DNA of 64,000 nt from a virus: the IMG/VR virus record IMGVR_UViG_3300020054_000866, positions 1 through 64,000 of that record. One strand, 5' to 3'. Below the pieces are notes generated by a model. That model made no database searches. It worked only from the letters and a program-made list of their open reading frames with translations, and was not told the origin of the DNA. Positions within the stretch are counted from its first letter, which is position 1; every line of letters begins with the position of its first letter. This document shows positions 20,695-40,890 of this stretch, in pieces. Both the position numbers and the translations under genes were made by a program.

Positions 20695-21581
20695 TGGCTA
20701 TTGACGCTGCTTTGGGGCGTCTTGGGATTAGGCCCGGGGTATGCACTAGTTCAACGCGCCCCGCGAACCCCTTTGAGGGTCAGGTTATTTACGAGACTGA
20801 TACGAATAACATTCGTTTCTGGTCTGGTTCTGCGTGGGAAAGCAATAAGGGCGGGATCGTTTCTTCTTCTGCTCCTACTGGGGCGGCTGCTGGGGATATT
20901 TGGTATGACTCTGATGACGGTCGTGCCTATATTTATTATGATGATGGTTCTTCTCAACAGTGGGTTGAGTTTGGTGCTCCTCCGTCTGGTTCTTCTATCA
21001 CTCTGGCCTCTTACGCTGATTCAGCGGCCAGAGATGCCGCAATAACTTCTCCGACAGAAGCAGATTTGGTCTACCTACAAGACACAAACGCTATTCAGTT
21101 CTACGATGGATCGTCTTGGAAAGGTATCAGCAAGATGACAAAAGTTGCAGCATTTACGAGTTCTGGTACTTGGACGGTGCCTGCTGGTGTGACGTATGCG
21201 GTCGCCCATATCCGTGGCGGAGGCGGCGGTACTACAAGCGGGACTACGGCGACGCAAGGTGACGGCGGCGACTCGTCGGTGGCGTTCGCCGGTGGCACCG
21301 TCACCGCCGAAGGCGGTGGTGGAATCCTCATCGTGGGCCAGAATACCTACTACGGACACGCTGCCGGACCGCCTAATAGTGGGCAAGGCGCAACAGGCAC
21401 AGCCGGAGCCAACGCCTACTCATCCGGCGGCAAGGGCGCAGACGGTGCCTACATCGTGGCCGGTGACACCGTGACACCTGCCGCCAGCATCGCCGTGACT
21501 GTGGGTGCTGGTGGCACCGCAGGGACCGTCGGAGCCGCTGGTGGTTCTGGCTACGTGTGGATCGAATATCAGGAGTCGTGA
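20694..21581 (+). CDS. Fibre tip with a glycine-rich (polyglycine-II-like) domain
   Basis: GVCTSSTRPANPFEGQVIYETDT head, FTSSGTWTVPAGV, GGGGG repeats and terminal GGSGYVWIEY. Confidence 0.7.
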   Translation: MAIDAALGRLGIRPGVCTSSTRPANPFEGQVIYETDTNNIRFWSGSAWESNKGGIVSSSAPTGAAAGDIWYDSDDGRAYIYYDDGSSQQWVEFGAPPSGSSITLASYADSAARDAAITSPTEADLVYLQDTNAIQFYDGSSWKGISKMTKVAAFTSSGTWTVPAGVTYAVAHIRGGGGGTTSGTTATQGDGGDSSVAFAGGTVTAEGGGGILIVGQNTYYGHAAGPPNSGQGATGTAGANAYSSGGKGADGAYIVAGDTVTPAASIAVTVGAGGTAGTVGAAGGSGYVWIEYQES

Positions 21582-21868
21582 TGAGTGAACGTGTCGTAGC
21601 CGTGCTAGACGGCAGCGTCGTCGCGAACGTGGTCGTTGTTGGTGCCGACTGGGTGGCCCCTGCCGATGGGTCGATGGTCGAGTACACGACCGGCTACCCG
21701 GCTGCTATCGGCTGGGAGTACGACGGCACAGGGTTCATCCCACCTCAGCCGTACCCGTCGTGGGTGCTCACCGACTATGTGTGGGAAGCACCTGTCGCTT
21801 TGCCTGATGACGGCCAGTCGTATGTTTGGGATGAGACGACGGTTAGTTGGCAGGTGGTGAGTAACTAA
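21581..21868 (+). CDS. Small fibre-associated (chaperone-like) protein
   Basis: IGW.YDG..FIPPQPYPSWVL...WEAPV..P.DG..Y.WDE....W, shared with 33893 and 35900. Confidence 0.65.
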   Translation: MSERVVAVLDGSVVANVVVVGADWVAPADGSMVEYTTGYPAAIGWEYDGTGFIPPQPYPSWVLTDYVWEAPVALPDDGQSYVWDETTVSWQVVSN

Positions 21869-22803
21869 TGCCTTTATCTTTCCCTGACGCCCCCTCAGTA
21901 AACGATACCTATACCGTAGGTGATCTGACTTATACGTGGAACGGAACTGTCTGGCGTGTAAGTGCAAAGCAAATCTCTATTGACTATCTTGTTGTTGCTG
22001 GTGGGGGCGCTGGAGGTAAGGGTGCAGGCGCTCAGTCCACTGCTATTGGTGGTTCCGGTGGTGGCGGTGCAGGCGGTATGAAGACTGGGACAACGCCCTG
22101 TATTGTCGGCAGCAATTATCTTGTAACGGTTGGTGCTGGTGGAAGTATTGGTGCAGCATCTAGGGACAGCGGTAATAACGGGACTTCTAGTGTATTTAGT
22201 GTTGCTTACGTTTATGGCGGCGGTGGTGGTGGCGGAGGTCATATTCTGGCTGGCATTGACGGTGGTTCTGGAGGTGGCTCGGCCTGTGATAACGCTGGTG
22301 CAGGTAGTCCAGTATCTGGTCAAGGAAATAGCGGTGGCAATGGCGGCGGCACCAACGGCGGCGGAGCAGGTGGTGGCGGAGCGGGTGCTGTAGGAGGTAA
22401 CGGGGCATCTAGCGCTACTGGGACAGGTGGAGATGGCGGTAACGGTGTAGCGTCGTCCATAACAGGCTCTTCTGTTTACTATGCTGGCGGTGGTGGTGGC
22501 GGAGGTGGCCTGAACGGTTCTGTCGGAGGTTCTGGTGGACTTGGCGGCGGCGGTGATGCTCACGGTGGTGGGGGCGGATCTGCTACAGCCGGTACTGCCA
22601 ATACTGGTGGTGGCGGAGGCGCAGGTTCTGACGGCGCTGGCGGTGCTGTTGCCGGAGCAGGTGGTTCTGGTGTTGTGATTATCAGGTTCCCTACCGCGTC
22701 TGGCTCTCCAACCGTATCTGCTGGGCTAACTTCTTCTTCTACAACTGATGGTACTGATACCGTGGTGACGTTTACGGCGGGAACTGGGACGGTGACTTGG
22801 TAA
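21868..22803 (+). CDS. MAIDFP-type adaptor fused to a glycine-rich tip
   Basis: MPLSFPDAPSVND..YTWNGTVW head, DYLVVAGGG and GGSGVVIIR. Confidence 0.7.
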   Translation: MPLSFPDAPSVNDTYTVGDLTYTWNGTVWRVSAKQISIDYLVVAGGGAGGKGAGAQSTAIGGSGGGGAGGMKTGTTPCIVGSNYLVTVGAGGSIGAASRDSGNNGTSSVFSVAYVYGGGGGGGGHILAGIDGGSGGGSACDNAGAGSPVSGQGNSGGNGGGTNGGGAGGGGAGAVGGNGASSATGTGGDGGNGVASSITGSSVYYAGGGGGGGGLNGSVGGSGGLGGGGDAHGGGGGSATAGTANTGGGGGAGSDGAGGAVAGAGGSGVVIIRFPTASGSPTVSAGLTSSSTTDGTDTVVTFTAGTGTVTW

Positions 22804-23957
22804 TGGCTGTTTCTTCTACTTCTTCAGGTTCTCTTAAAACAGGGGTATGTCTTTCAACAGACCGCCCAGATAACCCGTTCACCGGACAAGTCATCTTTGA
22901 AACCGATACCGGCAAAGTGTTTGTGTGGGCCGGATCAACATGGGTAAACATTGGTGATACGTCTGGTGAAGGTGTGCAGTTGCCTTCTGGTACTACTGCC
23001 GAGCGCCCCTCGTCTCCTACTGCCGGTCAGATGAGATTCAATGAGACGACCGGTGAACCCGAGTATTATCACTCCACTGCTGGATGGTTGAAGTTCAGGA
23101 ACTCTCCAGAATTTACTGTCGATTATCTGGTGATTGCTGGCGGTGGCGGTGGTGAAGAAAGGGCTTCCGGCACCAATACAAGATCTGGTGGTGGCGGTGG
23201 TGCCGGTGGTTACCGTTCCACGTGGAGTACAGAGCCTTCAGGAGGGGGTGCTTCAGCAGAGTCAACGCTCACTTTGGGGTATTCCAACAATTACACTGTG
23301 ACTGTCGGCGCGGGGGGAGCGGGAGGAATCCGCTTAACAAGTCGTGCATTTGAAGGTTCTGATTCCGAATTTTCCACAATAACGTCAGTAGGTGGAGGGT
23401 ACGGCGGTCTGTACTCGGTGTCAGTGGGTGGCAGAGAGGGCGGAGACGGTGGTTCTGGTGGTGGTGGTGGCCGCAACTCTGGAATAGAAGGAAGCGGCAC
23501 ATTAAATCAAGGTTATGATGGCGGAGCAGGTGGTGCTGAAACCGGTGGTGGTGGTGGCGGTGCTGGCGGCACTGGAGGCGCTGGAGGTGGTAGTTCGGCG
23601 GGCGCTAACGGCGGATCTGGGGTAGCAAGCACCATCACTGGGAGTTCAGTGAGCAGAGCGGGCGGTGGCGCTAACGCATATGGTTCTGCGTCATCCGGCG
23701 GGGGAACAGGAGCGGGAACAGATCAGAATGGAACTGACGGTACCGTCAACACCGGTGGCGGTGGTGCAGGTGCGTCAAGTGTGTCAACTGAAGGTGTCGG
23801 GAGGGGCGGCAACGGCGGGTCTGGGATTGTTATCATCCGTTACTCCAGCAATCTTACTGTAGATGTTTCTGCTGGCCTCACCTCAACAACCACGACAGTC
23901 GGCAACGATAAAGTTACCGTCTTTACTGCTGGAACAGGAACAGTATCATGGGTTTAA
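22803..23957 (+). CDS. Glycine-rich fibre tip
   Basis: GVCLSTDRPDNPFTGQVIFETDT, LPSGTTAERP, DYLVIAGGG and GGSGIVIIRY. Confidence 0.7.
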   Translation: MAVSSTSSGSLKTGVCLSTDRPDNPFTGQVIFETDTGKVFVWAGSTWVNIGDTSGEGVQLPSGTTAERPSSPTAGQMRFNETTGEPEYYHSTAGWLKFRNSPEFTVDYLVIAGGGGGEERASGTNTRSGGGGGAGGYRSTWSTEPSGGGASAESTLTLGYSNNYTVTVGAGGAGGIRLTSRAFEGSDSEFSTITSVGGGYGGLYSVSVGGREGGDGGSGGGGGRNSGIEGSGTLNQGYDGGAGGAETGGGGGGAGGTGGAGGGSSAGANGGSGVASTITGSSVSRAGGGANAYGSASSGGGTGAGTDQNGTDGTVNTGGGGAGASSVSTEGVGRGGNGGSGIVIIRYSSNLTVDVSAGLTSTTTTVGNDKVTVFTAGTGTVSWV

Positions 23958-24259
23958 GTAACTCTGTACCGAACAGTATTCTCCAGCCGGGAGTCTGCAC
24001 CTCAACAACCCGTCCTGCTTTGCCATACGAGGGGCAGGTCATCTTTGAAACCGACACCAACTACACGTACGTCTATGATGGTAGTGCGTGGCGGATCTAC
24101 ATTGGTTCTGCGGGCACCCCGATCTTCCTGAACGGTCAAACGATCTCCACGGATTACACGATCCCGTCAGGATACAATGGTGTTTCTGCTGGCCCCATTA
24201 CTATTGCTGATGGAGTAACAGTAACCGTGTCTTCTGGTAGTGAGTGGAGTATCGTATGA
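23948..24259 (+). CDS. Short fibre adaptor
   Basis: GVCTSTTRP..PYEGQVIFETDT head; C-terminal SAGPITIADGVTVTVSSGSEWSIV. Confidence 0.65.
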   Translation: MGLSNSVPNSILQPGVCTSTTRPALPYEGQVIFETDTNYTYVYDGSAWRIYIGSAGTPIFLNGQTISTDYTIPSGYNGVSAGPITIADGVTVTVSSGSEWSIV

Positions 24260-24849
24260 GCAGGTTAACGGTCGGGTCTATTGAGGGTTTAACAGAGAAC
24301 AGTAATGTTATTTCTGTCCCTACCGGTCATAGTTTGAATGTTGCTGATGCTGGTGCGTTAATCGCTCCCGGCCACATTATTCAGGTCGTGTCCACCACCA
24401 AGACAGACACATTTTCCGCTTCCATAACTGGCGGCAGTACGGCATCCGTAACTGGTCTTTCTGCAACCATAACTCCATCATCTACAAGTTCAAAGATTCT
24501 TATTATGGTAAGTCTAAACGGAGCAAGAAATGATGGTGGGACCGGAGAAGCAGATATTGCATTTCAAATCAGCAGAGATGGAACTTCTGTCGGGTCTGGG
24601 GATGCTGCTGGTAGTCGCCCCGGCGTTGTTTCGATGTTTGATTTAGATCCTGCGTCTAATGCTTCAAGAGGGCAAATCTATGGGCAGTACTTAGACAGTC
24701 CTGCTTCAACTTCTGCTCTTACTTATCAAGTTGAATACTACGCAAGAGCGACTGACACCTATTATGTGAATCGGTCCCCAGTAGACTCTGACAACATAGT
24801 TCATGCTCGCTCTCAGTCAACCATCACTCTGATGGAGGTGGCAGGATGA
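24256..24849 (+). CDS. Fibre tip (IIQVV...SATITPSSTSSKIL domain)
   Basis: Domain shared with 25914; ends ITLMEVAG. Confidence 0.7.
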   Translation: MSRLTVGSIEGLTENSNVISVPTGHSLNVADAGALIAPGHIIQVVSTTKTDTFSASITGGSTASVTGLSATITPSSTSSKILIMVSLNGARNDGGTGEADIAFQISRDGTSVGSGDAAGSRPGVVSMFDLDPASNASRGQIYGQYLDSPASTSALTYQVEYYARATDTYYVNRSPVDSDNIVHARSQSTITLMEVAG

Positions 24850-25118
24850 CCGACTATTCTGCTGTTCTGACTGTCAACTATCCCGATGCTGAGTGGACTC
24901 TTGACGGTGACACCTACGATGGTTTGACATGGCTTAGCGATACGCCGAAGCCCACGCAGGCTGAGTTGGATGCCGCGTGGCCCGCTGTTCAGCAGGCACG
25001 TATTGACGCTCAGGTCGCCAAGCAAGCCACAAAGCAGTCGGCTATAGATAAACTTGCTGCCCTTGGTTTAACTGTTGATGAGATTCGTGAAGCCTTTGGT
25101 TTGGAGGCCCCCCAGTGA
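24846..25118 (+). CDS. Small XkdW-like / fibre chaperone protein
   Basis: MTDY.AVLT.NY.DAEWTL.GD.Y.GLTWLSDTPKP; C-terminal KQSAIDKLAALGL.VDEI shared with 25693. Confidence 0.6.
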   Translation: MTDYSAVLTVNYPDAEWTLDGDTYDGLTWLSDTPKPTQAELDAAWPAVQQARIDAQVAKQATKQSAIDKLAALGLTVDEIREAFGLEAPQ

Positions 25119-25696
25119 GTACCTTAAGGTTTAATACTTGGCAGAATACAGGGGGCACGGAAGCCGCTACCGCCAGCGAGGTTTCAGCATACTCGTTTAC
25201 TGAGCCGGGTTCCGTCCTTGTCGCAACTACTTCTTTCTCAGGTGCTATCAATGTTCAAATTGATAACTGCTTCACCAGCACATATTCGGTCTATAAAGTT
25301 TACGTTTACTTTGATCATGCCTCAGATGGGTTGTGGTTTATACGAATGACGACGGGCGGCACCCCAGAGACCAGTGTTTACGAGAGCGCCTATTGCAACA
25401 CTAGGGCTGGAAACGCTGTGTCGGGACAAGGCGGTAGCGGACAATCATATATGTACGGTGGAACGGGTAATTATGATCTGACTACTGAGATAACAATTCT
25501 TAACCCGTACCAAAGCCTGAATACGGCGTGCCACTGGCTATCGCACTCTAAGGCTGGTGCGTCGAATTACAACTATCAAACGTGGGGCGGGGCTAGTGTA
25601 AATAACACAAACTCTCACGATGGTATTCATCTCGCATCTGGTATTTCTCAGAACATATCTGGGAATATTTGGGTATACGGAGTTAAACAGTCATGA
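25115..25696 (+). CDS. Fibre tip protein
   Basis: MSTLRFNTWQN head (as in 25914), CFTSTY..Y and terminal G.IWVYG. Confidence 0.65.
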   Translation: MSTLRFNTWQNTGGTEAATASEVSAYSFTEPGSVLVATTSFSGAINVQIDNCFTSTYSVYKVYVYFDHASDGLWFIRMTTGGTPETSVYESAYCNTRAGNAVSGQGGSGQSYMYGGTGNYDLTTEITILNPYQSLNTACHWLSHSKAGASNYNYQTWGGASVNNTNSHDGIHLASGISQNISGNIWVYGVKQS

Positions 25697-25914
25697 AAAC
25701 TCATCGCTTTGACGCTGCAACTGGGGAAGTTGTATTTAGAGATATGACCGCTGACGAGGTTGCCGTGGCTGAACTTGATCTTCAAGAGGAGACCGCCCGT
25801 CAGGATGCTGTTGTTGCCGAGGCTGCTGCTAAACAATCCGCTATCGACAAACTTGCGGCCCTCGGTCTTTCGGTAGATGAAATCCGGGCCGCGTTTGGTT
25901 TGGAGGGTAACTGA
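25693..25914 (+). CDS. Small fibre chaperone-like protein
   Basis: TGEVV.RDMT.DE and KQSAIDKLAALGLSVDEI. Confidence 0.6.
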   Translation: MKTHRFDAATGEVVFRDMTADEVAVAELDLQEETARQDAVVAEAAAKQSAIDKLAALGLSVDEIRAAFGLEGN

Positions 25915-26492
25915 TGGCTTCTATTCTTCGTTTTGATAATTGGCAGAACTCTGATGGTACGTCTATTGCTACTACTGATGCTTCTGGGAATATCAGTTTT
26001 GCTGGTGCGGGGGCAGGCAAGATTTTGCAAGTTGTGTCAACTACCAAGACCGACACGTTTTCGGCCTCGCTGGCCGGATTTGCGAGCACCGCCGTAACTG
26101 GTCTCACGGCGACCATCACTCCGTCATCGACCGCTTCCAAGATCCTTGTTATCTCAACCGTTGTTGCCGCCGAGTCTTGGGGCCCTACCGGATCGTCCGC
26201 CTACAGTTTGACCCGCGACGGGACCCCGATTGCTCAGCCCGCGAGTCCGGGTTCACGGTTACCGCTCACGACCTTAAACTACTCTGTTACTGGCGCAACT
26301 GTGATCCAGGGCGGAACCGCCGTCTATCTCGATAGCCCAGCATCAACATCCAGCCTCATCTACGGCGTGTCCCTCTTTAACACCCTCTCAAGCACCGAGA
26401 CGGTGTATGTCAACCGCGCCGACAGCGACACCGACGCCGCCACGCGCCGCCGAACCGTGTCTACCATCACCGTCATGGAGGTGTCAGCGTGA
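25914..26492 (+). CDS. Fibre tip (GKILQVV...ATITPSSTASKIL domain)
   Basis: Paralogue of 24256. Confidence 0.7.
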   Translation: MASILRFDNWQNSDGTSIATTDASGNISFAGAGAGKILQVVSTTKTDTFSASLAGFASTAVTGLTATITPSSTASKILVISTVVAAESWGPTGSSAYSLTRDGTPIAQPASPGSRLPLTTLNYSVTGATVIQGGTAVYLDSPASTSSLIYGVSLFNTLSSTETVYVNRADSDTDAATRRRTVSTITVMEVSA

Positions 26493-26800
26493 CCGATTAC
26501 GCTGCCGTACTGACCGCCAACTATCGGGATGCCGAGTGGACGTTAGAGGGCGACGACTACGCCGGTTTGACATGGCTGTCCGACACGCCGAAGCCGTCAC
26601 AGGCTGAGTTGGATGCCGCATGGCCCCAAGTCCAATACCAACAACAACGGGCCGAAATAGAAACCCAACGTAGAAACGCCTACACCCAAGAAGCCGACCC
26701 CCTCTTCTTCTCATATCAGAGAGGCGAAGCCACAGAACAAGACTGGCTAAGCGTGGTACAATCAATAAAAGAACGATATCCGTACCCTGAGGCACCGTAA
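26489..26800 (+). CDS. Small XkdW-like / fibre chaperone protein
   Basis: N-terminal half nearly identical to 24846; different C-terminus (RRNAY..EADPLFF...IKERYP). Confidence 0.6.
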   Translation: MTDYAAVLTANYRDAEWTLEGDDYAGLTWLSDTPKPSQAELDAAWPQVQYQQQRAEIETQRRNAYTQEADPLFFSYQRGEATEQDWLSVVQSIKERYPYPEAP

Positions 26801-27249
26801 TGGCGATTGATTTTCCGAACTCTCCTAGCGTCAATGACATCTACTCAGTAGGCGATCGTTCATGGCTATGGAATGGCACGTATTGGGAGGTTCGCGCTAC
26901 TCCAACTCAGACGTTTAGCGTGTCTGACACGGCTCCAGGTTCTCCACAGTCGGGTGACATGTGGTATCGCTCTGATACCTCGCAAACGCTCATCTACTAC
27001 GATTCGACATGGGTGGAGATCGGTCACTCAGCTAACATTGCGAGCTTTGTGCAAGATGCTGATACCGATACAAAGATTCAAGTCGAAGAATCTGCCGACG
27101 AGGACACAATAAGATTTGACATCGCCGGGACTGAAAAGATGACGCTGGACTCAGCTGGGTTAGCGGTGACTGGCACAATCACTACGAACGGCGCATCGGT
27201 CGCCACGACAGGCAAGGCCATTGCAATGGCTATGGTTTTTGGAGGCTGA
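26800..27249 (+). CDS. MAIDFP-type adaptor
   Basis: MAIDFPNSPSVND..WLWNGTYW, GDMWY repeat, DADTDTKIQVEES.DED.IRFD.AG; ends GKAIAMAMVFGG. Confidence 0.7.
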   Translation: MAIDFPNSPSVNDIYSVGDRSWLWNGTYWEVRATPTQTFSVSDTAPGSPQSGDMWYRSDTSQTLIYYDSTWVEIGHSANIASFVQDADTDTKIQVEESADEDTIRFDIAGTEKMTLDSAGLAVTGTITTNGASVATTGKAIAMAMVFGG

Positions 27250-27250
27250 C

Positions 27251-27628
27251 ATGGCTGCACCTAATATTGTAAACGTCGCAACAATCACCGCCAAAACCGC
27301 TCTAGTACGCCTCGCAGACACAAGTGAGAACACGCTCGTTTCTAACTCCGCGTCGTCTGGCAAGGTGTTCAAGATCAACAATATTATTGTTTCCAACGTT
27401 GATGGCACAGACGACGCCACAATTACTGTCGTTGTCTGGGACACCGCCACTGTCGGTTCTACAAACGGCACAAAGATTGCTCACACTATCAATGTTCCCG
27501 CCGATTCGACGCTTGTTCTTATTGATAAGTCATCGGCCATCTATCTCGAGGAGGATAGGTCTATCGGGGTCACCGCCTCGGCTGCTGACGATCTACACGT
27601 CATCTGCTCGTATGAAGAGATCTCGTAA
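27251..27628 (+). CDS. Beta-rich connector protein (paralogue 2)
   Basis: MAAPNIVNV..I...KINNIIVSNVDG...VPADSTL....IYLEE...SYEEIS. Confidence 0.7.
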   Translation: MAAPNIVNVATITAKTALVRLADTSENTLVSNSASSGKVFKINNIIVSNVDGTDDATITVVVWDTATVGSTNGTKIAHTINVPADSTLVLIDKSSAIYLEEDRSIGVTASAADDLHVICSYEEIS

Positions 27629-29496
27629 TGCCTACCCGTAAGTTCATAGGCATTGATAAAAACCCGGTTGCTTCTGATGCTTCTGGTGTTTGGGTTTTAT
27701 CTGAACATTATGCTGCTGTTCTTGGTAACAGATGGCCAGGAGATGCCGTGTATGCGCTGTTCGCAGGCGGCGAAAGCGCCTCAGGGGAGGAGAACACCAT
27801 TGACTATGTGGAAGTTGTCTCCGCTGGTAATGCCACGGACTTCGGTGACCTAACTCGAACGGCGTACTACCTTGCGGGCCTCAGTTCCACGACTCGTGGA
27901 GTGTTCGGAGGCGGTTACGTTGGCGGAGGCTATTCCAATGTCATCGACTATGTGACCATCGCAACGACTGGGGACGCTTCCGACTTCGGGGATTTGACAG
28001 TCGCTAGGTGGGAACTCGGTGGTGCGTCGAACGAAACCCGTGGCCTGTGGGCCGGTGGTCTAGCGGCTGGCTCTAGGAATAACACAATCGACTACATCAC
28101 GATCGCTACAACTGGGAACGCCACCGACTTCGGTGATCTGACAGAAGCCGCCCAAGCGCTGGCAGGCCTCGCATCTCCGGTCCACGCCATCTTCGTCGGC
28201 GGACGTACAGCCGCATTCAACTATGACACCCGAATCGACCATGTGGCGATCGCCTCCACGGGTGACGCTATCGCATGGGGCGAACTGACTGTCGGACGGT
28301 GGAGACTGGCGGCGGCATCGAACAGCACTCGTGGACTAGCGGCAGGTGGAGTCGGCGCCTCCGGTAACCTAGATGTCATTGACTACATCACGCTGGCCTC
28401 CGCAGGTAACGCCACGGACTTTGGTGACCTGAGTTTTGCCCGTCGGTGGCTTGCTGGTGCGGCATCCTCCACTCGTGCCATCTTCGGTGGAGGTACCGAC
28501 GGTAGCGTAACGAATGTCATTGACTCCGTAGAGATCGACACGCTCGGGAACGCCGTTGACTTCGGTGACTTGACTGTCGCCCGTCAGTCTGTCGCCGCCT
28601 GCTCTAACGGTCACGGTGGACTTACTCCGGAATCGCAAGTTGCGTCAGGACGAGGCATCCTCGCAGGCGGTTACACGCCAAGCGTTGTCAGCACCATCGA
28701 TTACTTCACGATCTCAACGGGTGGTAACGCCCTTGTGTTCGGTGGCCTCACGACAGCCAGAAGGGGTGTCGGGTCGTGTTCTTCTACGACCAGAGGTCTG
28801 TTCGGTGGAGGCTACACGGGAGCGAACTCCAACGTGATCGACTACATCACGATGGCTACCGCAGGCAACGCCACCGACTTCGGTGACCTGACTATCACCC
28901 GGGAGTCGACATTCGGTTGCTCTGATCCGACGAGAGGCATCTTCGCAGGCGGTTACACAACGTCGGAAGTGAACGTCATCGACTATGTGACCATCGCCAC
29001 GACCGGCAACGCAACCGACTTCGCTGACCTGACGGTCGCTCGGCAAACATCAGGATCGCTCGCATCCCCGACGAGGGGCATCTTCGGAGGTGGCTGGACT
29101 GGGGCTAACTCCAACGTCATTGACTACATCACGATTCAGACCATCGGAAACGCCACCGACTTCGGCGATCTCACCGTGTCACGCCATTGGCTTAGCGGGG
29201 TGTCATCAGCGACTCGTGGCGTGTTTAGTGGCGGCAATAGTGGAACCTCAACTATCGACTATGTGACCATCGCCACGACTGGGAACGCAACATCGTTTGG
29301 CAACATGGCTACCGCAAGAGAGGGAAGTGGCGGCGTGTCTAACAGCACGACCGGAGTGTTCTGTGGTGGCCTTAGTACCGCAACCTGTGATGCGATCACT
29401 ATTGCGACCACCGGGAACGCCACGACCTACGGGTCTCTCACACAAGCCCGTTCACGGCTTGATGGTGTATCAGACAGTCACGGAGGACTCCAATGA
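27628..29496 (+). CDS. Tandem beta-propeller (kelch-like) adhesin with IDY.TIATTGNATDFGDLT repeats
   Basis: About 13 ~45-aa repeats arranged in two HGGL-terminated blocks. Confidence 0.75.
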   Translation: MPTRKFIGIDKNPVASDASGVWVLSEHYAAVLGNRWPGDAVYALFAGGESASGEENTIDYVEVVSAGNATDFGDLTRTAYYLAGLSSTTRGVFGGGYVGGGYSNVIDYVTIATTGDASDFGDLTVARWELGGASNETRGLWAGGLAAGSRNNTIDYITIATTGNATDFGDLTEAAQALAGLASPVHAIFVGGRTAAFNYDTRIDHVAIASTGDAIAWGELTVGRWRLAAASNSTRGLAAGGVGASGNLDVIDYITLASAGNATDFGDLSFARRWLAGAASSTRAIFGGGTDGSVTNVIDSVEIDTLGNAVDFGDLTVARQSVAACSNGHGGLTPESQVASGRGILAGGYTPSVVSTIDYFTISTGGNALVFGGLTTARRGVGSCSSTTRGLFGGGYTGANSNVIDYITMATAGNATDFGDLTITRESTFGCSDPTRGIFAGGYTTSEVNVIDYVTIATTGNATDFADLTVARQTSGSLASPTRGIFGGGWTGANSNVIDYITIQTIGNATDFGDLTVSRHWLSGVSSATRGVFSGGNSGTSTIDYVTIATTGNATSFGNMATAREGSGGVSNSTTGVFCGGLSTATCDAITIATTGNATTYGSLTQARSRLDGVSDSHGGLQ

Positions 29497-29549
29497 CCGA
29501 ACTAGCACTCACCGCATCGCAGAAATTTATCATTGACATTGGAGACTGA
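29493..29549 (+). pseudogene. Truncated remnant of the 39821 gene (MTELALTASQ...GD*)
   Basis: 29494-29521 is identical to 39822-39849 (28 nt), then diverges and stops after 18 codons. Confidence 0.75.
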
Positions 29550-29552
29550 GCC

Positions 29553-29843: not shown

Positions 29844-29847
29844 AGAC

Positions 29848-32257: not shown

Positions 32258-32343
32258 CCAATTATTCTTCAACAGCTCGTAAAATCGCGGCTGCTCGTGT
32301 AGTGTATAATTTGGTGAGATCTTGTGCGTTGGAGGCCGTCTAA

Positions 32344-33875: not shown

Positions 33876-33879
33876 GAGG

Positions 33880-33885
33880 TATAAT
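33880..33885 (+). promoter_or_regulatory. -10 element TATAAT 7 nt upstream of the ATG at 33893 (leaderless)
   Basis: ggTATAATcacacctATG. Confidence 0.6.
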
Positions 33886-33892
33886 CACACCT

Positions 33893-34276
33893 ATGGCACA
33901 TTACGCATTTCTTGACAACAACAACGTCGTCACTGAGGTCATCGTCGGACGTGATGAAGATGAAGTCGTTGACGGCGTTACGGACTGGGAGGCTTACTAC
34001 GGTGAGTTCCGGGGCCAGACCTGTAAGCGCACCTCGTACAACACGCAGGGCGGACAGCACACTGGTGACGGCACCCCGTACCGTAAGAACTACGCCGGTA
34101 TCGGATACACGTACGATGCCGACCGTGACGCCTTCATTCCGCCCCAGCCGTACGCTTCGTGGGTCCTGAACGAGGACACCTGCCTGTGGGACGCCCCCAC
34201 CCCGATGCCTGATGACGGACAGGAGTACACGTGGAACGAAGACACGACCTCATGGGAAGTAGTTGAGGCTGAGTAA
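33893..34276 (+). CDS. MAHYA-type fibre chaperone-like protein
   Basis: MAHYAFLD.NN.VT.VI.G.DE...RTSYNT.GG.H...P.RKNYAGIGYTYD..RDAFIPPQPY. Confidence 0.7.
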   Translation: MAHYAFLDNNNVVTEVIVGRDEDEVVDGVTDWEAYYGEFRGQTCKRTSYNTQGGQHTGDGTPYRKNYAGIGYTYDADRDAFIPPQPYASWVLNEDTCLWDAPTPMPDDGQEYTWNEDTTSWEVVEAE

Positions 34277-35082
34277 TGGCGATCAATTTCCCCGACTCTC
34301 CTTCTAACGGCGACACCGTCACCGTCGGTGACAAGACGTGGACGTGGAACGGATCGACGTGGGATGTTGTCGTATCGACCCCGATCTCTAATCAGATCGT
34401 TGATGCGGATGGCGATACCCGCGTCCACGTAGAAGAGTCCCCCGACGAAGATTACTTACGTTTCGATACTGCTGGTACCGAGCGTATGACGATCAACCCT
34501 TCAGGCAATGTCGCTATGACCGGCGATCTTACGGTTACGGGTACTATTGCTGGTGGGTCTACTACCTTTCCCACTACGTTGGATTCTGGAACGATGCCCG
34601 CAATCGAGGCGCTTCAGGCGAAGGTTGGTGTCAATAGTTCTGCTGTTGCGACTTCGCATGATTACATTCTGAATCAGCCGACCGCTTTCACGTTGAAGGC
34701 TCCGTTGGAGTTGTGGACCATTTCGGCTACAGCGGCCACAGGAACCGTGAACGTCGATCTGAAGTCGTCAGGCGCACATTATTTCACGGCGGATGCTACG
34801 GCGAACTGGACATACAATTTCCGTGGCGATGCGTCTACCAGTCTTGATTCTGTGTTGGCTGTCGGTGAATCGGTCACCGCTGTTCACGCAGTGACCAACG
34901 GCGCGACAGCTTACTATCCGACGGCGTTTCAGGTTGACGGTTCGGCGGTGACACCCAAGTGGTCGGGTGGTTCTGCACCCACTTCGGGTAATGCTAGTTC
35001 GGTTGATGCTTACCTGTTTACTGTTGTCAAGACTGCTAGCGCTACGTTTACGGTGTTGGCTCAGCAGGTTCAGTTTGCCTGA
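34276..35082 (+). CDS. MAINFP-type adaptor / fibre segment
   Basis: MAINFPDSP..WTWNGSTW, DADGDT..HVEE..DED..RFDTAG; C-terminal DAY.FT..KT.SATFTVLA domain. Confidence 0.7.
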   Translation: MAINFPDSPSNGDTVTVGDKTWTWNGSTWDVVVSTPISNQIVDADGDTRVHVEESPDEDYLRFDTAGTERMTINPSGNVAMTGDLTVTGTIAGGSTTFPTTLDSGTMPAIEALQAKVGVNSSAVATSHDYILNQPTAFTLKAPLELWTISATAATGTVNVDLKSSGAHYFTADATANWTYNFRGDASTSLDSVLAVGESVTAVHAVTNGATAYYPTAFQVDGSAVTPKWSGGSAPTSGNASSVDAYLFTVVKTASATFTVLAQQVQFA

Positions 35083-35897
35083 TGCCTATTTTAGGTGCGG
35101 TTTCTCAGCCTGCTGGGGCGATCAGGTATGGCCGTCCGCCGCTAGAGGTTGAATATCTGGTTGTCGCTGGCGGCGGGGGTGGCGGAGGAGGCGACGATGC
35201 CGACGGCGGAGGCGGTGGTGGAGGCGCAGGTGGCTTCCTGACCAGTACCGTGACTTTGACGGCTGGTTCTAATTACACTGTAACAGTTGGCGGTGCTGGC
35301 GGTGGATCGCCATCGCTCAGCGTTGGCTCTAGTGGCGGAAACTCAGTATTCGATTCGGCCACAGCAATTGGCGGTGGTCGTGCCGCTAGCCGTGGCGGTG
35401 GCGGTCAAAGCGGCGGTTCCGGCGGTGGATGTTTCCGAAACGCCAATCGGGGATTGGGAACGGCTGGTCAAGGAAACGCTGGCGCAAGTAGCACGACTTC
35501 GTGGGCTGGCGGTGGCGGTGGTGGTGCCGGTGCAGGTGGTAGCAACATGAACGGTGGTGCTGGTCTTGCGTTTTATGGCACCTATTACGCTGGCGGTGGT
35601 GGTGGCGGCAGAAACGGTGCTACCGCTACTGGTTCCGGTGGTGCTGGTGGTGGCGGGAACGGTGCTGCAAACGGTTCTGCTGGTACGCACGGTCTTGGCG
35701 GTGGTGGCGGCGGTGGTCAAGGAGGATGGAATACCAACTCCTTGGGTGCCCGTGGTGGTTCTGGTGTTGTTATTCTGCGCTATCCAGACGTATATACCTT
35801 GACAGTTGCGGCAGGTCATACTGCTTCTACCACCACAAGCGGATCAACCAAGATCACTACTATTACTGCCGGTTCTGGCTCTGTTTCTTGGAGTTGA
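35082..35897 (+). CDS. Glycine-rich fibre tip
   Basis: VEYLVVAGGGGGG...GGSGVVILRYP. Confidence 0.7.
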   Translation: MPILGAVSQPAGAIRYGRPPLEVEYLVVAGGGGGGGGDDADGGGGGGGAGGFLTSTVTLTAGSNYTVTVGGAGGGSPSLSVGSSGGNSVFDSATAIGGGRAASRGGGGQSGGSGGGCFRNANRGLGTAGQGNAGASSTTSWAGGGGGGAGAGGSNMNGGAGLAFYGTYYAGGGGGGRNGATATGSGGAGGGGNGAANGSAGTHGLGGGGGGGQGGWNTNSLGARGGSGVVILRYPDVYTLTVAAGHTASTTTSGSTKITTITAGSGSVSWS

Positions 35898-35899
35898 CG

Positions 35900-36286
35900 A
35901 TGTGGCATTATGCTTTACTTGACGAAAACAATGTTGTGACCGATATCATCACTGGTCAAAACCCCAATGTTGTCGTGGACGGTGTTGATAACTGGGAATC
36001 GTATTACGGTGAGTTTCACGGCTGTAGGGCTGTGGGGTCTGATTGCGACATGTTTGGTGGTCAACACTTGGATGGAGGTGTTCCATTCCGCAAAAACCAT
36101 GCGTCTATCGGCGGCACCTATGATGAAAGCCGCGATGCTTTTATTCCGTCACAGCCATACCCGTCATGGGTGCTAGACGAAGATACCTGCTTGTGGAACG
36201 CTCCGGCCCCTAAACCAAATGACGGCAATGCGTATGGCTGGGACGAGGACACTGTTAGTTGGGTTCAGATCGACGAAGGTGATTGA
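35900..36286 (+). CDS. MxHYA-type fibre chaperone-like protein
   Basis: MWHYALLDENNVVT...; paralogue of 33893. The start is the ATG at 35900 rather than 35726. Confidence 0.7.
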   Translation: MWHYALLDENNVVTDIITGQNPNVVVDGVDNWESYYGEFHGCRAVGSDCDMFGGQHLDGGVPFRKNHASIGGTYDESRDAFIPSQPYPSWVLDEDTCLWNAPAPKPNDGNAYGWDEDTVSWVQIDEGD

Positions 36287-36322
36287 TAATGTGTTACTAT
36301 AGTTCTGACACTGGAGGGTGTA

Positions 36323-37093
36323 ATGGCAATTGATTTTCCGTCGTCCCCATCAGTAAATGACTCGTTTACCTCAGGGGGCAAAACTTGGGTATGGAACGGT
36401 ACGTACTGGAAGTTGTACGGCTCTGTTCTGCGCGGCCTGAGTCTTGAGATCTCCGACACGCCCCCTGCTTCTCCTGTATCAGGAGATATGTGGTATGAGT
36501 CAGATACGGGGCGCACGTTCACGTATTATGACGGCGCATGGGTGGAGTTAGGTAACACCGCCGCTGTTACAGCGTTCTTGACCGACGCAGATGGAGATAC
36601 CATCGTCCACGTCGAAGAGGGCACAGACGACGACACTATCCGCTTTGATACGGCAGGTAGTGAGCGTATGACCATTGACGCGAGTGGTGACGTCACCATT
36701 GGCGGCAACCTGGCAGTTGGCTCTAACACTGACGTCGAAGCCAGCATTGATGCAGTTGAAGCCGATGTTTCTAACATCAATGAACTTCAGCAGAACGAGC
36801 AGACTGGAACCACCTACACGCTGGTTCTTGCTGACGGTGGTAAGTTGGTGGAGATGAACAATGCTTCGGCAAATACGTTGACTGTTCCCCCGAACTCCTC
36901 AGTTGCTTTCCCTGTGGGTTCTCAGATTCTGGTTCTTCAGACTGGTGCTGGTCAGACGACGTTGGCCCCCGACACTGGCGTTACCATCAACTCTAAGGAC
37001 GGTAATTTGAAGTTGTCGGATCAGTGGTGTGGCGTGACGTTGATCAAGCGTGCCACTGATGTGTGGGTGGCTATTGGCGATCTGAGCGCCTGA
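36323..37093 (+). CDS. MAIDFP-type adaptor
   Basis: MAIDFPSSPSVND, GDMWYESDTG, QTGTTYTLVLAD...VPPNSSVAFP.G...W...GDL. Confidence 0.7.
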   Translation: MAIDFPSSPSVNDSFTSGGKTWVWNGTYWKLYGSVLRGLSLEISDTPPASPVSGDMWYESDTGRTFTYYDGAWVELGNTAAVTAFLTDADGDTIVHVEEGTDDDTIRFDTAGSERMTIDASGDVTIGGNLAVGSNTDVEASIDAVEADVSNINELQQNEQTGTTYTLVLADGGKLVEMNNASANTLTVPPNSSVAFPVGSQILVLQTGAGQTTLAPDTGVTINSKDGNLKLSDQWCGVTLIKRATDVWVAIGDLSA

Positions 37094-37103
37094 GGCTGAC
37101 AAC

Positions 37104-39824
37104 ATGAAGTTGTCTACCTTCTCCGGGTTTATTAGCGCAGTAATCGCCGGTACCCGTGCGTTGTTTTTTGGCGGTTATACGGGGTCTGCTCGTAGCGATG
37201 TAATCGACTATGTCAACATTGAGACTCTGGGTAATGCCACCGATTTTGGTGATCTAACCGTTGCTCGTAACGGTGGTGCGGCTGGGGCTTCTTCAACTCG
37301 CGCTTTATTTGCTGGCGGTTACTCCACCTCCAGAGAAAACACTATTGACTATGTAACTATCGCCACGCTGGGTAATGCAACAGACTTCGGTAATCTGACA
37401 CAGAACGCCTCCGGTCAGGCGGGTGCGTCTAACGAAACACGTTTCGTAATAGGCGGCGCAAACATTACGAGTGCGTACTACGCCTTTAGCAATCGCATCG
37501 AGTATGTGACTATTGCTTCCACGGGTAATGCTATAAACGTAGGAGGCTTGACAGTAACTAGGGCTGAGGCTGGTGGAGTTGAGTCACCTGTTCACGGTTT
37601 GTTTATGGGCGGTCAGTTCGTGAACTCAGCAGCGACCGTATTCAGCACATATAACACTATTGACTACGTTACATTTAGTTCTTTAGGTAACGCTCTGGAT
37701 TTTGGTGATCTAACACAAGCACGTTTCGTTGGCGGTCCCGCATCTAACTCTGTCAGAGGTCTGTACGCTGGCGGTGTAAGCCGAGTTGGTACGACTAGTG
37801 CTACCGTCCTAAGAGACACCATTGACTACTTGACCCTTGCGGCTAGAGGCAACTCCGCAGATTTCGGTAATCTTAGTGTCGCTTCTAGCAGTAACGCTGG
37901 GGCGGCTTCTTCATCGAGGGCACTATTCACCCTCGGTTATCCCAATTCTTACGGCAGTAACACCATTGAATATGTTGAGATTGCCACTACCGGCAACACT
38001 GTTGATTTTGGTGATCTCACCATTGCTCGTAATGCTGACGGCACCTCTGGCGGTCACGGTGGGCTGATCTTAGTTCTGCCTACTGCTGACGGTACTCGTG
38101 CGCTGTTCGGTGGCGGTCTCGTTGATGGCGGTTCTGTCAGAACGCAGATCGACACGGTACTGATCGCTTCGACTGGGAACGCCACCGACTTCGGTGACCT
38201 GACGCAGGCTCGAACTTATCTCAACGGGTTGTCTTCCTCTACAAGAGGCGTGTTTACCGGCGGCAATATCGGAAGCAGCACCCGTGTCAACACGATGGAT
38301 TATGTGACCATCGCTGAGGGTGGGACCGCCCTTGACTTCGGTGACCTGACGTTGGTTCACGACGATCATGGAACAGCATCTAATGAAACCCGAGGTCTGA
38401 ACTTCGGTGGTCAAACTCCAACTGTTCTGACTAACGTGATTGACTACATCACGATTGCTACGACTGGTAATGCTACGGACTTCGGTGACCTAAGTTGGGG
38501 TGCGAGCCGTAACCCGATGGCGGTCCAGTCTCCCATCCACGGCATCGTTCACGGCGGTTCCATCGACCAAGACGGCATCTACTACGTTGCGTTTGCGTCG
38601 ACCGGCAACACGGTGCAGTGGGGAACCCTGTATCAGACAAACTATTCGGTGAGCAACGGTGTGTCTAATGCCACCCGAGGCGTGTTCGCTGGTGGCGGCA
38701 CCGTAGCGAATGTGATCCAAGCCATTACGCTGGCATCTGCCGGAAACTCGATAGACTTTGGTGACCTGACGGTGGCAAGAGCAAAGGCGGCTGGTGCCGC
38801 TTCTCCGACCCGTGGCCTGTTTGCTTCGGGTGAGGGCTACTACAACGTGATCGACTACATCGACATCGCCACATTCGGTAATGTTGCCGACTTCGGTGAT
38901 CTCACGGAGACGATCTTGAAGCCGGGTGCCTGCTCTGACGGTCACGGTGGGCTTGGAGCGTCACCGTTGGAGTCAATCTCCAACATCGGCGTGTTCGACA
39001 ACGGGGACTACATCGAATACCTGAACATCGCTTCGACCGGTAACTCGCTGAACTTCGGCAAGTTGAGTACCGCAAGGTCACGGATGGATGCTGTCGGTTC
39101 CACTACTCGGGCCGTGTTCGGTCCCGGCTTGGGGGACGATGTTACCATTGACTATCTGACGTTCACGACCGGTGGCGACGCTACTGACTTCGGTGATACA
39201 ACGTCCGCTCGTTCAGCAATGGGCGGTTGTGGGAACTCTACCCGAGGACTGTTCGGCGGTGGCATCCCTAACTCGGACGTCATCGACTATGTGACCATCG
39301 CCACGACCGGCAACGCAACCGACTTCGGTGATCTGACGGTGAGCCGTGGTGATACGTCAGCAACATCCAACTCCACCCGAGGCTTGTTCTGCGGAGGTGC
39401 CACGACTCCCGGCCCGACAGTCCGAAACCAGATCGACTATGTGACCATCGCAACCACCGGAAACGCTACCGACTTTGGTGATCTCACGGTGGCTCGTCGT
39501 GATCTCGGTGCTTCTGCGTCCACTACTAGGGCTGTCATCGTCGGCGGTCGTGACGCTACGGCTTCCGGTTGGTACAACACGATGGATTACGTCACCATCG
39601 CTACGACAGGAAACGCTACGGACTTCGGTGACCTGACGGTTGCCCGAGGGAAATGTAAGTCTATGTCGAACACGACGAGAGGTATCTGTACCCCCGGCGA
39701 GGGTTACAACGTCATCGACTACTGGACGATCGCCACCACCGGGAACGCCACCGACTTTGGTGACGCATCGACCGCCTCCTATCACGGTGGCGCAACATCA
39801 AACTGTCATGGAGGACTGTCGTGA
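37104..39824 (+). CDS. Triple beta-propeller (kelch-like) adhesin with GNATDFGDLT repeats
   Basis: About 18 repeats in three HGGL-terminated blocks; paralogue of 27628. Confidence 0.75.
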   Translation: MKLSTFSGFISAVIAGTRALFFGGYTGSARSDVIDYVNIETLGNATDFGDLTVARNGGAAGASSTRALFAGGYSTSRENTIDYVTIATLGNATDFGNLTQNASGQAGASNETRFVIGGANITSAYYAFSNRIEYVTIASTGNAINVGGLTVTRAEAGGVESPVHGLFMGGQFVNSAATVFSTYNTIDYVTFSSLGNALDFGDLTQARFVGGPASNSVRGLYAGGVSRVGTTSATVLRDTIDYLTLAARGNSADFGNLSVASSSNAGAASSSRALFTLGYPNSYGSNTIEYVEIATTGNTVDFGDLTIARNADGTSGGHGGLILVLPTADGTRALFGGGLVDGGSVRTQIDTVLIASTGNATDFGDLTQARTYLNGLSSSTRGVFTGGNIGSSTRVNTMDYVTIAEGGTALDFGDLTLVHDDHGTASNETRGLNFGGQTPTVLTNVIDYITIATTGNATDFGDLSWGASRNPMAVQSPIHGIVHGGSIDQDGIYYVAFASTGNTVQWGTLYQTNYSVSNGVSNATRGVFAGGGTVANVIQAITLASAGNSIDFGDLTVARAKAAGAASPTRGLFASGEGYYNVIDYIDIATFGNVADFGDLTETILKPGACSDGHGGLGASPLESISNIGVFDNGDYIEYLNIASTGNSLNFGKLSTARSRMDAVGSTTRAVFGPGLGDDVTIDYLTFTTGGDATDFGDTTSARSAMGGCGNSTRGLFGGGIPNSDVIDYVTIATTGNATDFGDLTVSRGDTSATSNSTRGLFCGGATTPGPTVRNQIDYVTIATTGNATDFGDLTVARRDLGASASTTRAVIVGGRDATASGWYNTMDYVTIATTGNATDFGDLTVARGKCKSMSNTTRGICTPGEGYNVIDYWTIATTGNATDFGDASTASYHGGATSNCHGGLS

Positions 39825-40618
39825 CCGAACTAGCACTCACCGCATCGCAACTACCGGAACGGTACGAGCAGATGATCGACAAGGTGACCGAACTGCTCCC
39901 AAGGATCGACGCATCGAACGAGTCGTTCTACAAGTCGGACTCACAACTCAAGACCGTCTCGCTGAACGTCACCGACCTGACCGATGTTGGTGCGGCGAAG
40001 CATATCCTCGCCCGTATCGAACGGAAGCGGGAAGCGTTGAAGGAGTCCGAGTTGGGGTTGCGCCGTAAGCGGATCGAACTCGCTCAGAAACAAGACGAAC
40101 TGGAATCAGCATCCGGGTACGCCGCCGAACTGTTAGAGATCGACATTCTGGAACTGTCGTCACAGATCGAATCGACGCAGAACTACCAGCGGGGTGCCGT
40201 CCGTGAGGTGACGTTCCTCGTTCACCAGTACGAAGCAATCTGCGACAAGTTAGGTGTCGAAGTCATCACCGAAGAAATGTACGAGGCGAACGAGTCGAAG
40301 GCTCAAGTGATGCGGGCGTTCTCGCAGGCGCTCGCCGCCGCCCGCTCACGGCAGGGCTTGATCGACGAAGGCAACTTCATCTTCTTCCAAGACCTCGGCA
40401 TCAACGGTGCCGCCGCCCAACGGGAACTCATCACCTACCTCGAAATGGAACAGCAGATGCTCAACGAGGGCAAGGTGCCGACGTTCGAGGTTCAGTACGG
40501 CTGGCTGGATGCGGTCAGCGACAAGTTCGCCCCACAAGTCGCCTTGTACGCCGAGCATCGTGGACTCATCCCGCAAGTCGAAGCCGCCCTCGCACAACCG
40601 AAGGAATTAACAGTATGA
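39821..40618 (+). CDS. Coiled-coil protein partnered with the propeller adhesin
   Basis: E/L/K-rich helical sequence; translationally coupled (GTGA); its remnant follows the other propeller gene. Confidence 0.7.
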   Translation: MTELALTASQLPERYEQMIDKVTELLPRIDASNESFYKSDSQLKTVSLNVTDLTDVGAAKHILARIERKREALKESELGLRRKRIELAQKQDELESASGYAAELLEIDILELSSQIESTQNYQRGAVREVTFLVHQYEAICDKLGVEVITEEMYEANESKAQVMRAFSQALAAARSRQGLIDEGNFIFFQDLGINGAAAQRELITYLEMEQQMLNEGKVPTFEVQYGWLDAVSDKFAPQVALYAEHRGLIPQVEAALAQPKELTV

Positions 40619-40890
40619 AAGTAACAACGTATACCTTGAACGCCGACGGCACGATCCCCGGGTTCGTGACTAACGGCGGCTACTTCCCCGATGCCCGTGT
40701 CGGCGACTCTCCGCAAGACTGGACACTGGTCGGCGTCTGTGCTGATGACGCTCCCGGCGACGCGATGACCGAAGCCGAACTCGTCACCTACGTCGAAGCG
40801 TTCTCACCCGTGTTCACCAACGAGATTGACGGCACGGAGACTCCGGCGGCGGATGTTGTCGCCACATGGTGGGCAGTAAACGCCCAGTAA
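40615..40890 (+). CDS. Small hypothetical protein
   Basis: ATGA-coupled; Y.LNADGTIP..V..GGY. Confidence 0.65.
   Translation: MKVTTYTLNADGTIPGFVTNGGYFPDARVGDSPQDWTLVGVCADDAPGDAMTEAELVTYVEAFSPVFTNEIDGTETPAADVVATWWAVNAQ

Follow-up and report, generated by a model that had tools for sequence, protein, structure and literature searches.

A tail-fiber array nearly free of restriction palindromes and its probable import into an uncultured siphovirus-type phage genome

Gene content and surroundings of the fiber array

The uncultured-virus record IMGVR_UViG_3300020054_000866 is a linear contig of 109,822 bp, of which the first 64 kb (positions 1 to 64,000) are here called the window. Within the window, a block of tail-fiber genes is almost free of AGCT and of several other palindromic restriction sites that are present throughout the rest of the genome, referred to here as the backbone. 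The features of this array and of the regions around it are collected in Table 1, and genes are named by their start positions.

The backbone DNA polymerase was 83% and the tail-tip protein 57% identical to those of Actinomycetia phage DSL-LC01, which was obtained from Dishui Lake (PMC10611076). Phages of Microbacterium and Arthrobacter were remoter relatives, and the tail-tip gene had 266 relatives in IMG/VR. The backbone, judged by its sequence, is that of a freshwater actinophage of siphovirus type. It is related to DSL-LC01 and falls into a large family of phages of freshwater actinobacteria. Matches to bacterial genomes were uninformative as to the host. Neither 41-49 kb nor the complete array matched any of 50,697 phage records by Megablast. 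The window was without tRNA genes, and the record showed neither a terminal repeat nor a defined genome end.

The order of genes around the array departs from that of the backbone relatives. In DSL-LC01, in the IMG/VR relatives L001, L002, L004, L009, and L011, and in the contigs G006 to G008, the tape measure gene abuts the gene for the distal tail protein (Dit), the tip protein comes next, and the fiber block is short and located elsewhere. Compared with DSL-LC01, G006 to G008, and a number of IMG/VR relatives, the present genome carries the block running from Dit through the last of the replication genes in inverted orientation (41017-61761 in the window versus 62199-67326 on the minus strand), so that Dit follows the fiber block and the tape measure gene is no longer beside it. 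About 20 kb of additional fiber genes lie between the fiber block and Dit. These genes are missing at the homologous position in the backbone relatives, in which no homolog of the array was detected beyond a 30-residue adaptor. Two fiber paralogs in inverted orientation, 17066 (+) and 62199 (-), are 41-65% identical and could have mediated the inversion.

The adaptor motif opens seven genes of the array (21868, 26800, 29553, 31215, 32344, 34276, and 36323) as well as one fiber of G006. On the left, the composition edge of the array lies inside gene 20694, no farther than codon 25 (~20.77 kb). The right edge lies at ~40.8-40.9 kb; backbone site density is back from position 40,761, and the Dit gene contains 16 sites.

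Table 1. Features of the window. Site counts written x/y are observed/expected. G and L numbers designate related phage contigs described in the text. dCMP, deoxycytidine monophosphate; dUMP, deoxyuridine monophosphate.
Feature	Position	Strand	Characteristics
Multi-fiber array, probably imported	20694..40890	+	~29 co-oriented tail-fiber and small partner genes; PHROG tail-fiber matches; nearly free of AGCT, CCWGG, and GCCGGC
Left recombination junction, start of gene 20694-21581	20689..20770	+	Last backbone-type sites at 20634 (AGCT), 20755 and 20762 (both CGCG)
Part with G011-type spectrum	20694..26200	+	AGCT 0/19.3, CCWGG 1/10.7, CGCG 11/15.5, TGCA 16/20.8
Island with backbone-like site density	26200..27350	+	11 AGCT, CGCG, or CCWGG sites in 1.15 kb, including 3 AGCT
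Part with G012-type spectrum	27628..40890	+	AGCT, CCWGG, CGCG, TGCA, and GCWGC depleted; GGCC also in the last cassette
Last cassette, 906-residue fiber and two downstream genes	37104..40890	+	Strongest depletion; 3 sites versus 35.8 expected in the fiber gene
Right boundary	40760..41017	+	End of gene 40615-40890 and 126-bp spacer preceding the Dit-like gene
Native fiber-base module (14727, 15487, 1,098-residue fiber 17066, 20362)	14727..20694	+	Normal site density; AGCT 7/10.7 in 17066
Shared N-terminal adaptor, example	32344..32565	+	Motif MAIDFPNSPS..D...W.W.GT.W; 96% protein and 92% nucleotide identity to G011
Dit-like and tail-tip genes of the backbone	41017..43986	+	PHROG Dit and minor tail protein; 45-63% identity to 266 IMG/VR relatives and DSL-LC01; native DNA resumes
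Thymidylate-synthase-fold enzyme, candidate dCMP-modifying enzyme	47125..47997	+	Pfam PF00303, E 4e-27; Asp at the dUMP-selecting Asn position
dCMP deaminase, nucleotide-metabolism cluster	48162..48671	+	Pfam PF00383, E 3e-17
All-alpha pyrophosphatase of dUTPase_2 type; dCTPase role possible	57794..58267	+	Pfam PF08761, E 3e-11
C5 cytosine DNA methyltransferase homolog	59006..60253	+	Pfam PF00145, E 8e-23; 63-69% in G006 and G007

Depletion of palindromic sites in the array

AGCT occurred 6 times in 20,635-41,616, against a Poisson expectation of 82.7 (P 6e-28), whereas the remaining 88.8 kb of the record contained 350 copies. Outside the array its density was ~3.9 per kb in every 2.5-kb bin of the whole record. 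The six array sites are located at 27030, 27043, 27153, 32244, 32274, and 34908, leaving none in 34909-41616. An earlier sequence-only reading of this DNA had picked out by eye the array sites, four backbone sites (1364, 1586, 1637, and 1726), and a site-free stretch at 37104-40618, all of which proved real. A second-order Markov model predicted 53.7 AGCT for the array and 400.7 for the remainder, where 6 and 350 were observed.

To account for protein sequence and codon usage, both of which it preserves, a null model was used in which synonymous codons were shuffled within each gene (500 shuffles). Array genes contained 5 AGCT versus 57.2 expected (z score, -8.6; lowest shuffle, 39), and backbone genes 336 versus 386.6, so that the contrast first suspected by eye survives this control. 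Under the same null, CGCG was found 24 times versus ~71 in array genes and 584 times versus 505 in backbone genes, and TGCA 29 times versus 61 and 238 times versus 254, respectively. The scarcity of CCWGG, which had also been suspected, was evident from 6 sites versus 39.3 expected in the array and 143 versus 129.6 in the backbone. GCCGGC was absent from the array (12.4-12.6 expected) but present 56 times in the backbone (29.4-36.7 expected). The backbone thus avoids none of AGCT, CCWGG, CGCG, or GCCGGC, and its portrayal as free of AGCT avoidance is accurate as a description.

When all 136 strand-symmetric 4-mers were ranked by observed/expected ratio, the eight lowest in the array were all palindromes, whereas GATC, ACGT, and CCGG showed no depletion. 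More than 10 palindromes were depleted in total, and the depleted set varied by cassette. A per-gene scan confined the depletion to the contiguous genes at 20,694-40,890, with no other gene of the genome affected. Normal AGCT counts were seen in the native fiber and structural genes, namely 17066, 62199, 43976, the tape measure gene, and the capsid gene; fiber function therefore does not explain the pattern. Gly, Thr, and Ser are abundant in the array proteins, and Glu and Lys are scarce. Amino acid composition was rejected as the cause, because the depletion persists under the protein-preserving shuffle.

The avoidance was also visible in the choice of individual codons. Lys, Gln, or Glu followed by Leu was spelled xAG-CTN in 1 of 30 array occurrences, compared to 194 of 315 in the backbone. 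GCT, the commonest Ala codon of the array, encoded Ala in only 1 of 79 positions following an NNA codon but in 238 of 596 positions otherwise. For Ser, AGC preceded a codon starting with T in 0 of 99 cases in the array versus 51 of 361 in the backbone. All three reading frames avoid AGCT by context-dependent synonymous choice, and the depletion targets the DNA word itself rather than the protein or its codon usage.

Two parts of the array differ in the sites that they lack. CGCG, TGCA, GCWGC, and GGCC are low at 27.6-40.9 kb but barely so at 20.7-26.2 kb. For CGCG, segments S3, S4, S5, and S7 together gave 8/50.4 (observed/expected) versus 11/15.5 for S1 and S2 (P 0.0013). The island between the two parts includes gene 26800-27249, an adaptor-only gene of 149 residues that alone accounts for three of the six AGCT in the array (observed/expected, 1.41). 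Leftover CGCG sites cluster at codons 16-37 of the adaptor-bearing genes, which fits a CGCG-tolerant spectrum such as that of G011, described below.

Comparable islands were not found in other members of the family. AGCT flanking the tip gene was low on one side in none of ~40 relatives; a single exception was low on both sides. A scan of G006 to G008 for palindrome-poor islands gave nothing that survived the codon-shuffle null. A recurrent family feature was considered and rejected, since a GTAC-poor stretch of G006 indicated by the Markov model vanished under that null. This spurious island is held by four collagen-like fiber genes at 61,641-70,932 of G006 (L131) and calls for caution with repeat-rich genes.

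Donor-like phages and the left junction

It took searches with genes 22797 and 32344 to bring up donor-like contigs. One of them, G011 (IMGVR_UViG_3300021960_000115), is a 49.6-kb contig that encodes a tail sheath and a portal. Across the whole contig it contained AGCT at 0/148, CCWGG at 0/96, and no GCCGGC, with CGCG and TGCA at 0.49 and 0.57 of expectation, and this held for every 5-kb bin. Another, G012 (IMGVR_UViG_3300021964_000248), has terminal repeats and a complete genome of 34.4 kb, in which AGCT stood at 0/82, CCWGG at 1/71, and CGCG at 6/104. G015, L149/150, L165/166, and L179/180 were likewise free of AGCT and CCWGG. The sequence-only reading had ascribed the tips to phages under AluI-like restriction pressure, and for the array, relatives of this kind have now been identified.

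G011 possesses a syntenic array with protein identities of 70-96%, including 92.5% for gene 20694, 82.5% for 23948, 91% for 33893, 93% for 34276, and 89% for 36323. Residues 1-74 of gene 32344 are 96% identical. At the nucleotide level, identity to G011 reached 94.9% over 36323-36675 and 89.8% over 33612-34630, and the part at 20694-26200 was 77-87% identical to G011, G014, and G015. G012 matched the window at 32610-33846 with 75% nucleotide identity. The two sub-spectra inside the array match the two donor types, G011 and G012. C-terminal tips of the array differ from those of G011 yet are equally free of AGCT; their source would be further phages of this site-avoiding pool. Gene order of the last cassette recurred in L082 at 35-55% identity, and in that contig AGCT stood at 0/63, CGCG at 0/31, and GGCC at 0/34. 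For the 906-residue fiber, the best homolog among 5.8 billion proteins was at most 48% identical, and its relatives in IMG/VR were 36-51% identical. A scan of genome contigs returned two uninformative fragments of metagenome-assembled genomes.

These comparisons also reverse one expectation. Site usage had been thought to mark native adaptors bearing imported tips. The adaptor and shaft portions are in fact the most donor-like ones (96% protein and 94.9% nucleotide identity in the examples above) and lack AGCT, so the adaptors came with the array; only 26.2-27.35 kb resembles the backbone. Most backbone genes outside the fiber module were missing from G011 and G012. It had further been anticipated that relatives of the tip genes would occur in phages without the thymidylate-synthase-like gene cluster. 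No gene of that cluster was found in the complete G012, which bears this out; for G011, the same result applies to the available part of the genome.

The fiber-base module to the left of the array has homologs in the backbone relatives G006 and G008, as well as in G011, G013, G015, and L149 at 43-71% identity, the G011 homologs of 14727, 15487, 17066, and 20362 all falling in this range. At the junction, nucleotide identity to G011 rose from 63-77% at 19.3-20.7 kb to 86-95% at 20.69-21.14 kb, and protein identity rose from 70.5% for gene 20362 to 92.5% for gene 20694. The step coincides with the composition boundary, as AGCT, CGCG, and CCWGG stop at 20.69-20.77 kb. A native copy of the fiber base on the left and donor-type DNA on the right are what a crossover within homologous flanks common to both phages leaves behind. 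The left crossover is demonstrably located at the start of gene 20694, beside a fiber-base module common to donor and recipient.

A weaker second mosaic was seen in G014 (L213) and L151, where the array-homologous part has a G+C content of 0.51-0.55 and AGCT at 6/24, compared to 0.44 and 29/67 for the rest. The contig G013 (IMGVR_UViG_3300043436_003510; L209-L212), a 69.9-kb phage contig with a G+C content of 0.45, shares genes 14727, 15487, and 17066. It contained AGCT at 0/238, GATC at 0/192, and CCGG at 0/134, and 16 six-base palindromes were absent.

Origin of the array and the question of cytosine modification

In our judgment the array was most likely imported by recombination from phages already purged of these sites, so that its depletion was inherited. 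A multi-fiber host-recognition module would have been acquired from phages of other morphotypes. Whole genomes of the donor pool would have been cleared of AGCT, CCWGG, and GCCGGC, with CGCG, TGCA, GCWGC, and GGCC lost to varying degrees, presumably as the usual outcome of selection by type II restriction acting through synonymous rewriting in three frames. The depletion in the present phage would then be a fossil rather than a product of selection here, and the backbone lineage would never have undergone a purge of these sites of 4 and 5 bases. The array contains two donor spectra at a minimum (20.7-26.2 kb and 27.6-40.9 kb), which implies that it was assembled or refreshed piecemeal. Further crossovers likely occurred at the conserved N-terminal adaptor regions and at the small partner genes between cassettes.

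Paralogs within the array are only 30-60% identical and must therefore have diverged under AGCT exclusion, before import. A founder effect by recent internal duplication is ruled out by the same figure. In the absence of selection, site-free DNA would be expected to regain 4-base sites at ~4 times the per-base substitution rate. Outside the island, ~3 of ~55 expected AGCT are present, which would correspond to an effective divergence of roughly 1-2% after selection had ended. On the scale of neutral decay, the import or the latest renewal of each cassette would thus be recent.

Whether the backbone is protected by a modified base is a separate question. In an alignment to solved thymidylate synthases, the thymidylate-synthase-fold enzyme of the backbone has D in place of their N. 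The 12-residue motif bearing this Asp, RSNDVWLGAAYD, was identical in 32 of 32 relatives with the gene in the fetched flank. By sequence, a cytidine monophosphate (CMP) 5-hydroxymethylase was among its top three relatives of solved structure; the enzyme is only ~20-30% like solved thymidylate synthases and CMP hydroxymethylase. In DSL-LC01 the homologs are annotated as ordinary thymidylate kinase and synthase, and a P-loop protein also present in the backbone is a candidate kinase for the modified nucleotide. Among nonredundant relatives, a 4-base palindrome was absent from 0 of 26 with the Asp-type gene versus 13 of 27 without it (Fisher P 3.6e-5), the 13 having GATC, CCGG, or ACGT at zero. 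The Asp-type gene was confirmed to be absent from five records of the gene-less group, and the positive control found the gene in 5 of 5. A parallel exists in coliphages, where those with a hydroxymethylase avoid 2.4% of Escherichia coli restriction sites and relatives without it avoid 55.8% (PMC6286503). That the Asp-type pathway, the C5-methyltransferase homolog, or both shield the backbone from most cytosine-sensitive enzymes is the likelier reason for its unpurged state, although we rate it slightly below an even chance. The fuller picture is put forward more tentatively: the phage would be a chassis shielded from restriction by C5-modified cytosine, and it would take up receptor-binding cassettes from phages that have other morphotypes, are unshielded, and infect the same host community.

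A sister group among the IMG/VR relatives of the tail-tip gene, L036-L079, has no thymidylate-synthase-like or deaminase gene between the tip gene and the polymerase, and GATC, CCGG, or ACGT is often at zero in its members but never in relatives that possess the two genes. In L050, GATC stood at 0/60 and AGCT at 35/105.

It should be noted that several observations count against import from such donors or against a shield. G011 is ~52% complete, and the absence of cluster genes thus covers its available part only. No single donor spans the whole array, and for the last cassette (37.1-40.9 kb) the evidence of origin consists of composition and L082. Codon usage was tried as independent proof of foreign origin and set aside: the distance between array and backbone was 0.81-0.83, compared to at most 0.37 among backbone blocks, but the fiber region of G011 is equally far from the rest of G011 (0.82). 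As to a shield, the backbone avoids CAGCTG (4/29.3; z score, -5.5) and CTGCAG (4/25; z score, -4.5). It is therefore not immune to restriction, and any shield must be partial. The usual enzymes for CAGCTG and CTGCAG are also blocked by C5-modified cytosine, which weakens the argument for shielding. Furthermore, the comparison of 26 with 27 relatives ignores phylogeny and host and is hence confounded. The sequence-only reading had expected the site pattern to support genome-wide cytosine modification independently. The comparison of relatives is consistent with such a modification, but the backbone avoids two 6-base sites, and a different host history would explain the contrast equally well.

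Avoidance of CAGCTG and CTGCAG is specific to this genome and was not seen in G006 to G008, while TTCGAA is low, less strongly, in this genome, in G006 to G008, and in DSL-LC01. GCCGGC, GATC (524 versus 389), and ACGT are overrepresented in the backbone. The donors are low in CTGCAG beyond what their TGCA level predicts (0/12.6 in G011 and 1/10.6 in G012), and this avoidance, common to backbone and donors, hints at a shared host.

The same import may have taken place into an unshielded backbone, whose hosts lacked AluI-, EcoRII-, and NaeI-type enzymes or which reached the host of the donors too recently to be purged, the pattern then reflecting two host histories and not a DNA modification. 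We regard this as a credible alternative, held with limited confidence. The genome-specific avoidance of CAGCTG and CTGCAG demonstrates that the backbone responds to restriction, and 14 of 27 relatives without the thymidylate-synthase-like gene also lack strong avoidance. Short contact time was named as an alternative to antirestriction by Rusinov et al. (PMC6286503). On the other hand, all 26 relatives with the Asp-type gene lack 4-base avoidance although their G+C contents of 0.41-0.64 imply many hosts. If selection acts per site, AGCT and CAGCTG should disappear at about the same rate, yet ~86% of CAGCTG is gone and other AGCT are near expectation. Fibers obtained from phages that share CTGCAG avoidance suggest a common host, in which 350 unprotected AGCT would be costly.

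Selection in place is very improbable. It would call for a region-specific process in this phage, for example that the array escapes the phage's own sequence-specific cytosine-modifying enzyme or that it enters the cell first, exposed before protection is established. Region-specific site sensitivity is known (PMC12455610), and the phage does encode a C5-methyltransferase homolog. However, the array consists of late fiber genes only, without early or antirestriction genes, the adjacent native fiber genes are undepleted, and no terminal repeat or genome end is near. The more than 10 palindromes involved, in cassette-specific sets, fit many enzymes of donor hosts and not one enzyme here, and the phages with the closest relatives of the array genes lack the same words genome-wide. 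In addition, selection in place predicts depletion in the unrelated fiber arrays of relatives, which was found in none of three long relatives and ~40 loci.

It is just as hard to credit an assembly chimera, in which a DSL-LC01-like backbone and a co-occurring G011-like stretch were joined via homologous fiber-base genes. In favor of a chimera, the record, from an uncultured virus, is linear and lacks terminal repeats, the module at 14727-20694 also occurs in G011-like phages, and the right edge coincides with an inversion breakpoint relative to the relatives. Nucleotide homology at the left junction, however, is only ~70-77%, too low for the assembly graph to collapse, and the genes are tightly coupled across it, with start/stop overlaps at 20362 and 20694. 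Two separate joins into one backbone would be required, the island and the two spectra are not expected from a single foreign contig, and G014/L151 carry the module in yet another backbone. A mutational origin is the least probable of all: AGCT and CCWGG are classic targets of C5-methyltransferases and the products of 5-methylcytosine deamination, AACT/AGTT, are in excess in the array (1.32; z score, 5.7), but the transversion neighbors AGCA/TGCT are more so (1.41; z score, 6.1), as for free synonymous replacement, and deamination would hit the whole molecule rather than 20 kb with sharp edges.

Relation to known systems

The array is a very clean case of known processes, site avoidance and fiber exchange, and not a new mechanism. 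Restriction-site avoidance in phage genomes was reportedly documented by Sharp in 1986 and by palindrome studies of the Karlin type. As in the genomes surveyed by Rusinov et al. in 2018 (PMC6286503), short type II palindromes have been removed synonymously, down to zero for 4- to 6-base sites. G011, G012, and G013 are textbook cases, whereas here the avoidance covers 18% of one molecule and has sharp edges. With 350 AGCT elsewhere, avoidance in the array gives no protection; in this genome it records past history and does not serve as a defense.

Mosaicism of fibers between phages is classical. Here too, a conserved N-terminal attachment region and variable tips are common to sheath-bearing, 34-kb, and siphovirus-type phages, and identity steps lie at domain borders. 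The unit exchanged would be unusually large (~20 kb and ~29 genes), and its site spectrum shows which way the genes moved and tells apart two or more donor backgrounds. Alteromonas phages, for example, share fibers across families (PMC10579305).

Another genome of which only a part is free of a site is that of T5. Its first-step-transfer DNA is site-free and enters the cell first. An early-injected region of Autographiviridae resembles it in being the only part of the genome free of a site (PMC12455610). Those regions enter first, carry early genes, and had their bias selected in place, in contrast to the late fiber array described here, which matches whole donor genomes. The likeness to coliphages with hydroxymethylated cytosine (PMC6286503) is that family members with the dCMP-type enzyme lack strong avoidance and those without it are often at zero; unlike in those coliphages, the modified base is only a candidate here and the backbone still avoids two 6-base sites.

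The present case stands out because it is so clear, because the module is large and crossed between morphotypes, and because site spectra reveal both direction and multiplicity. Such restriction scars indicate transfer from restriction-exposed phages, one of them sheath bearing, to a siphovirus-type freshwater actinophage. Site-avoidance maps could therefore help to locate imported host-range modules in uncultured phage genomes. Should the backbone be shielded, it is predicted to resist AluI-, EcoRII-, NaeI-, and BstUI-type enzymes despite hundreds of sites. If a shielded chassis does harvest cassettes from unshielded phages, the fossil record of sites would give the direction, donor number, and relative age of transfers, and CAGCTG and CTGCAG would mark host enzymes that the modification does not block. 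If this proves general, avoidance maps within genomes would reveal genes that passed from unmodified into modified phages and would predict which enzymes each modification defeats.

Fibers 27628-29496 and 37104-39824 contain many repeats of ~60 bp (window positions 27815-29521 and 38162-39849), which are 80-97% identical within and between the two genes. The ~60-bp repeat probably encodes a repeated structural unit.

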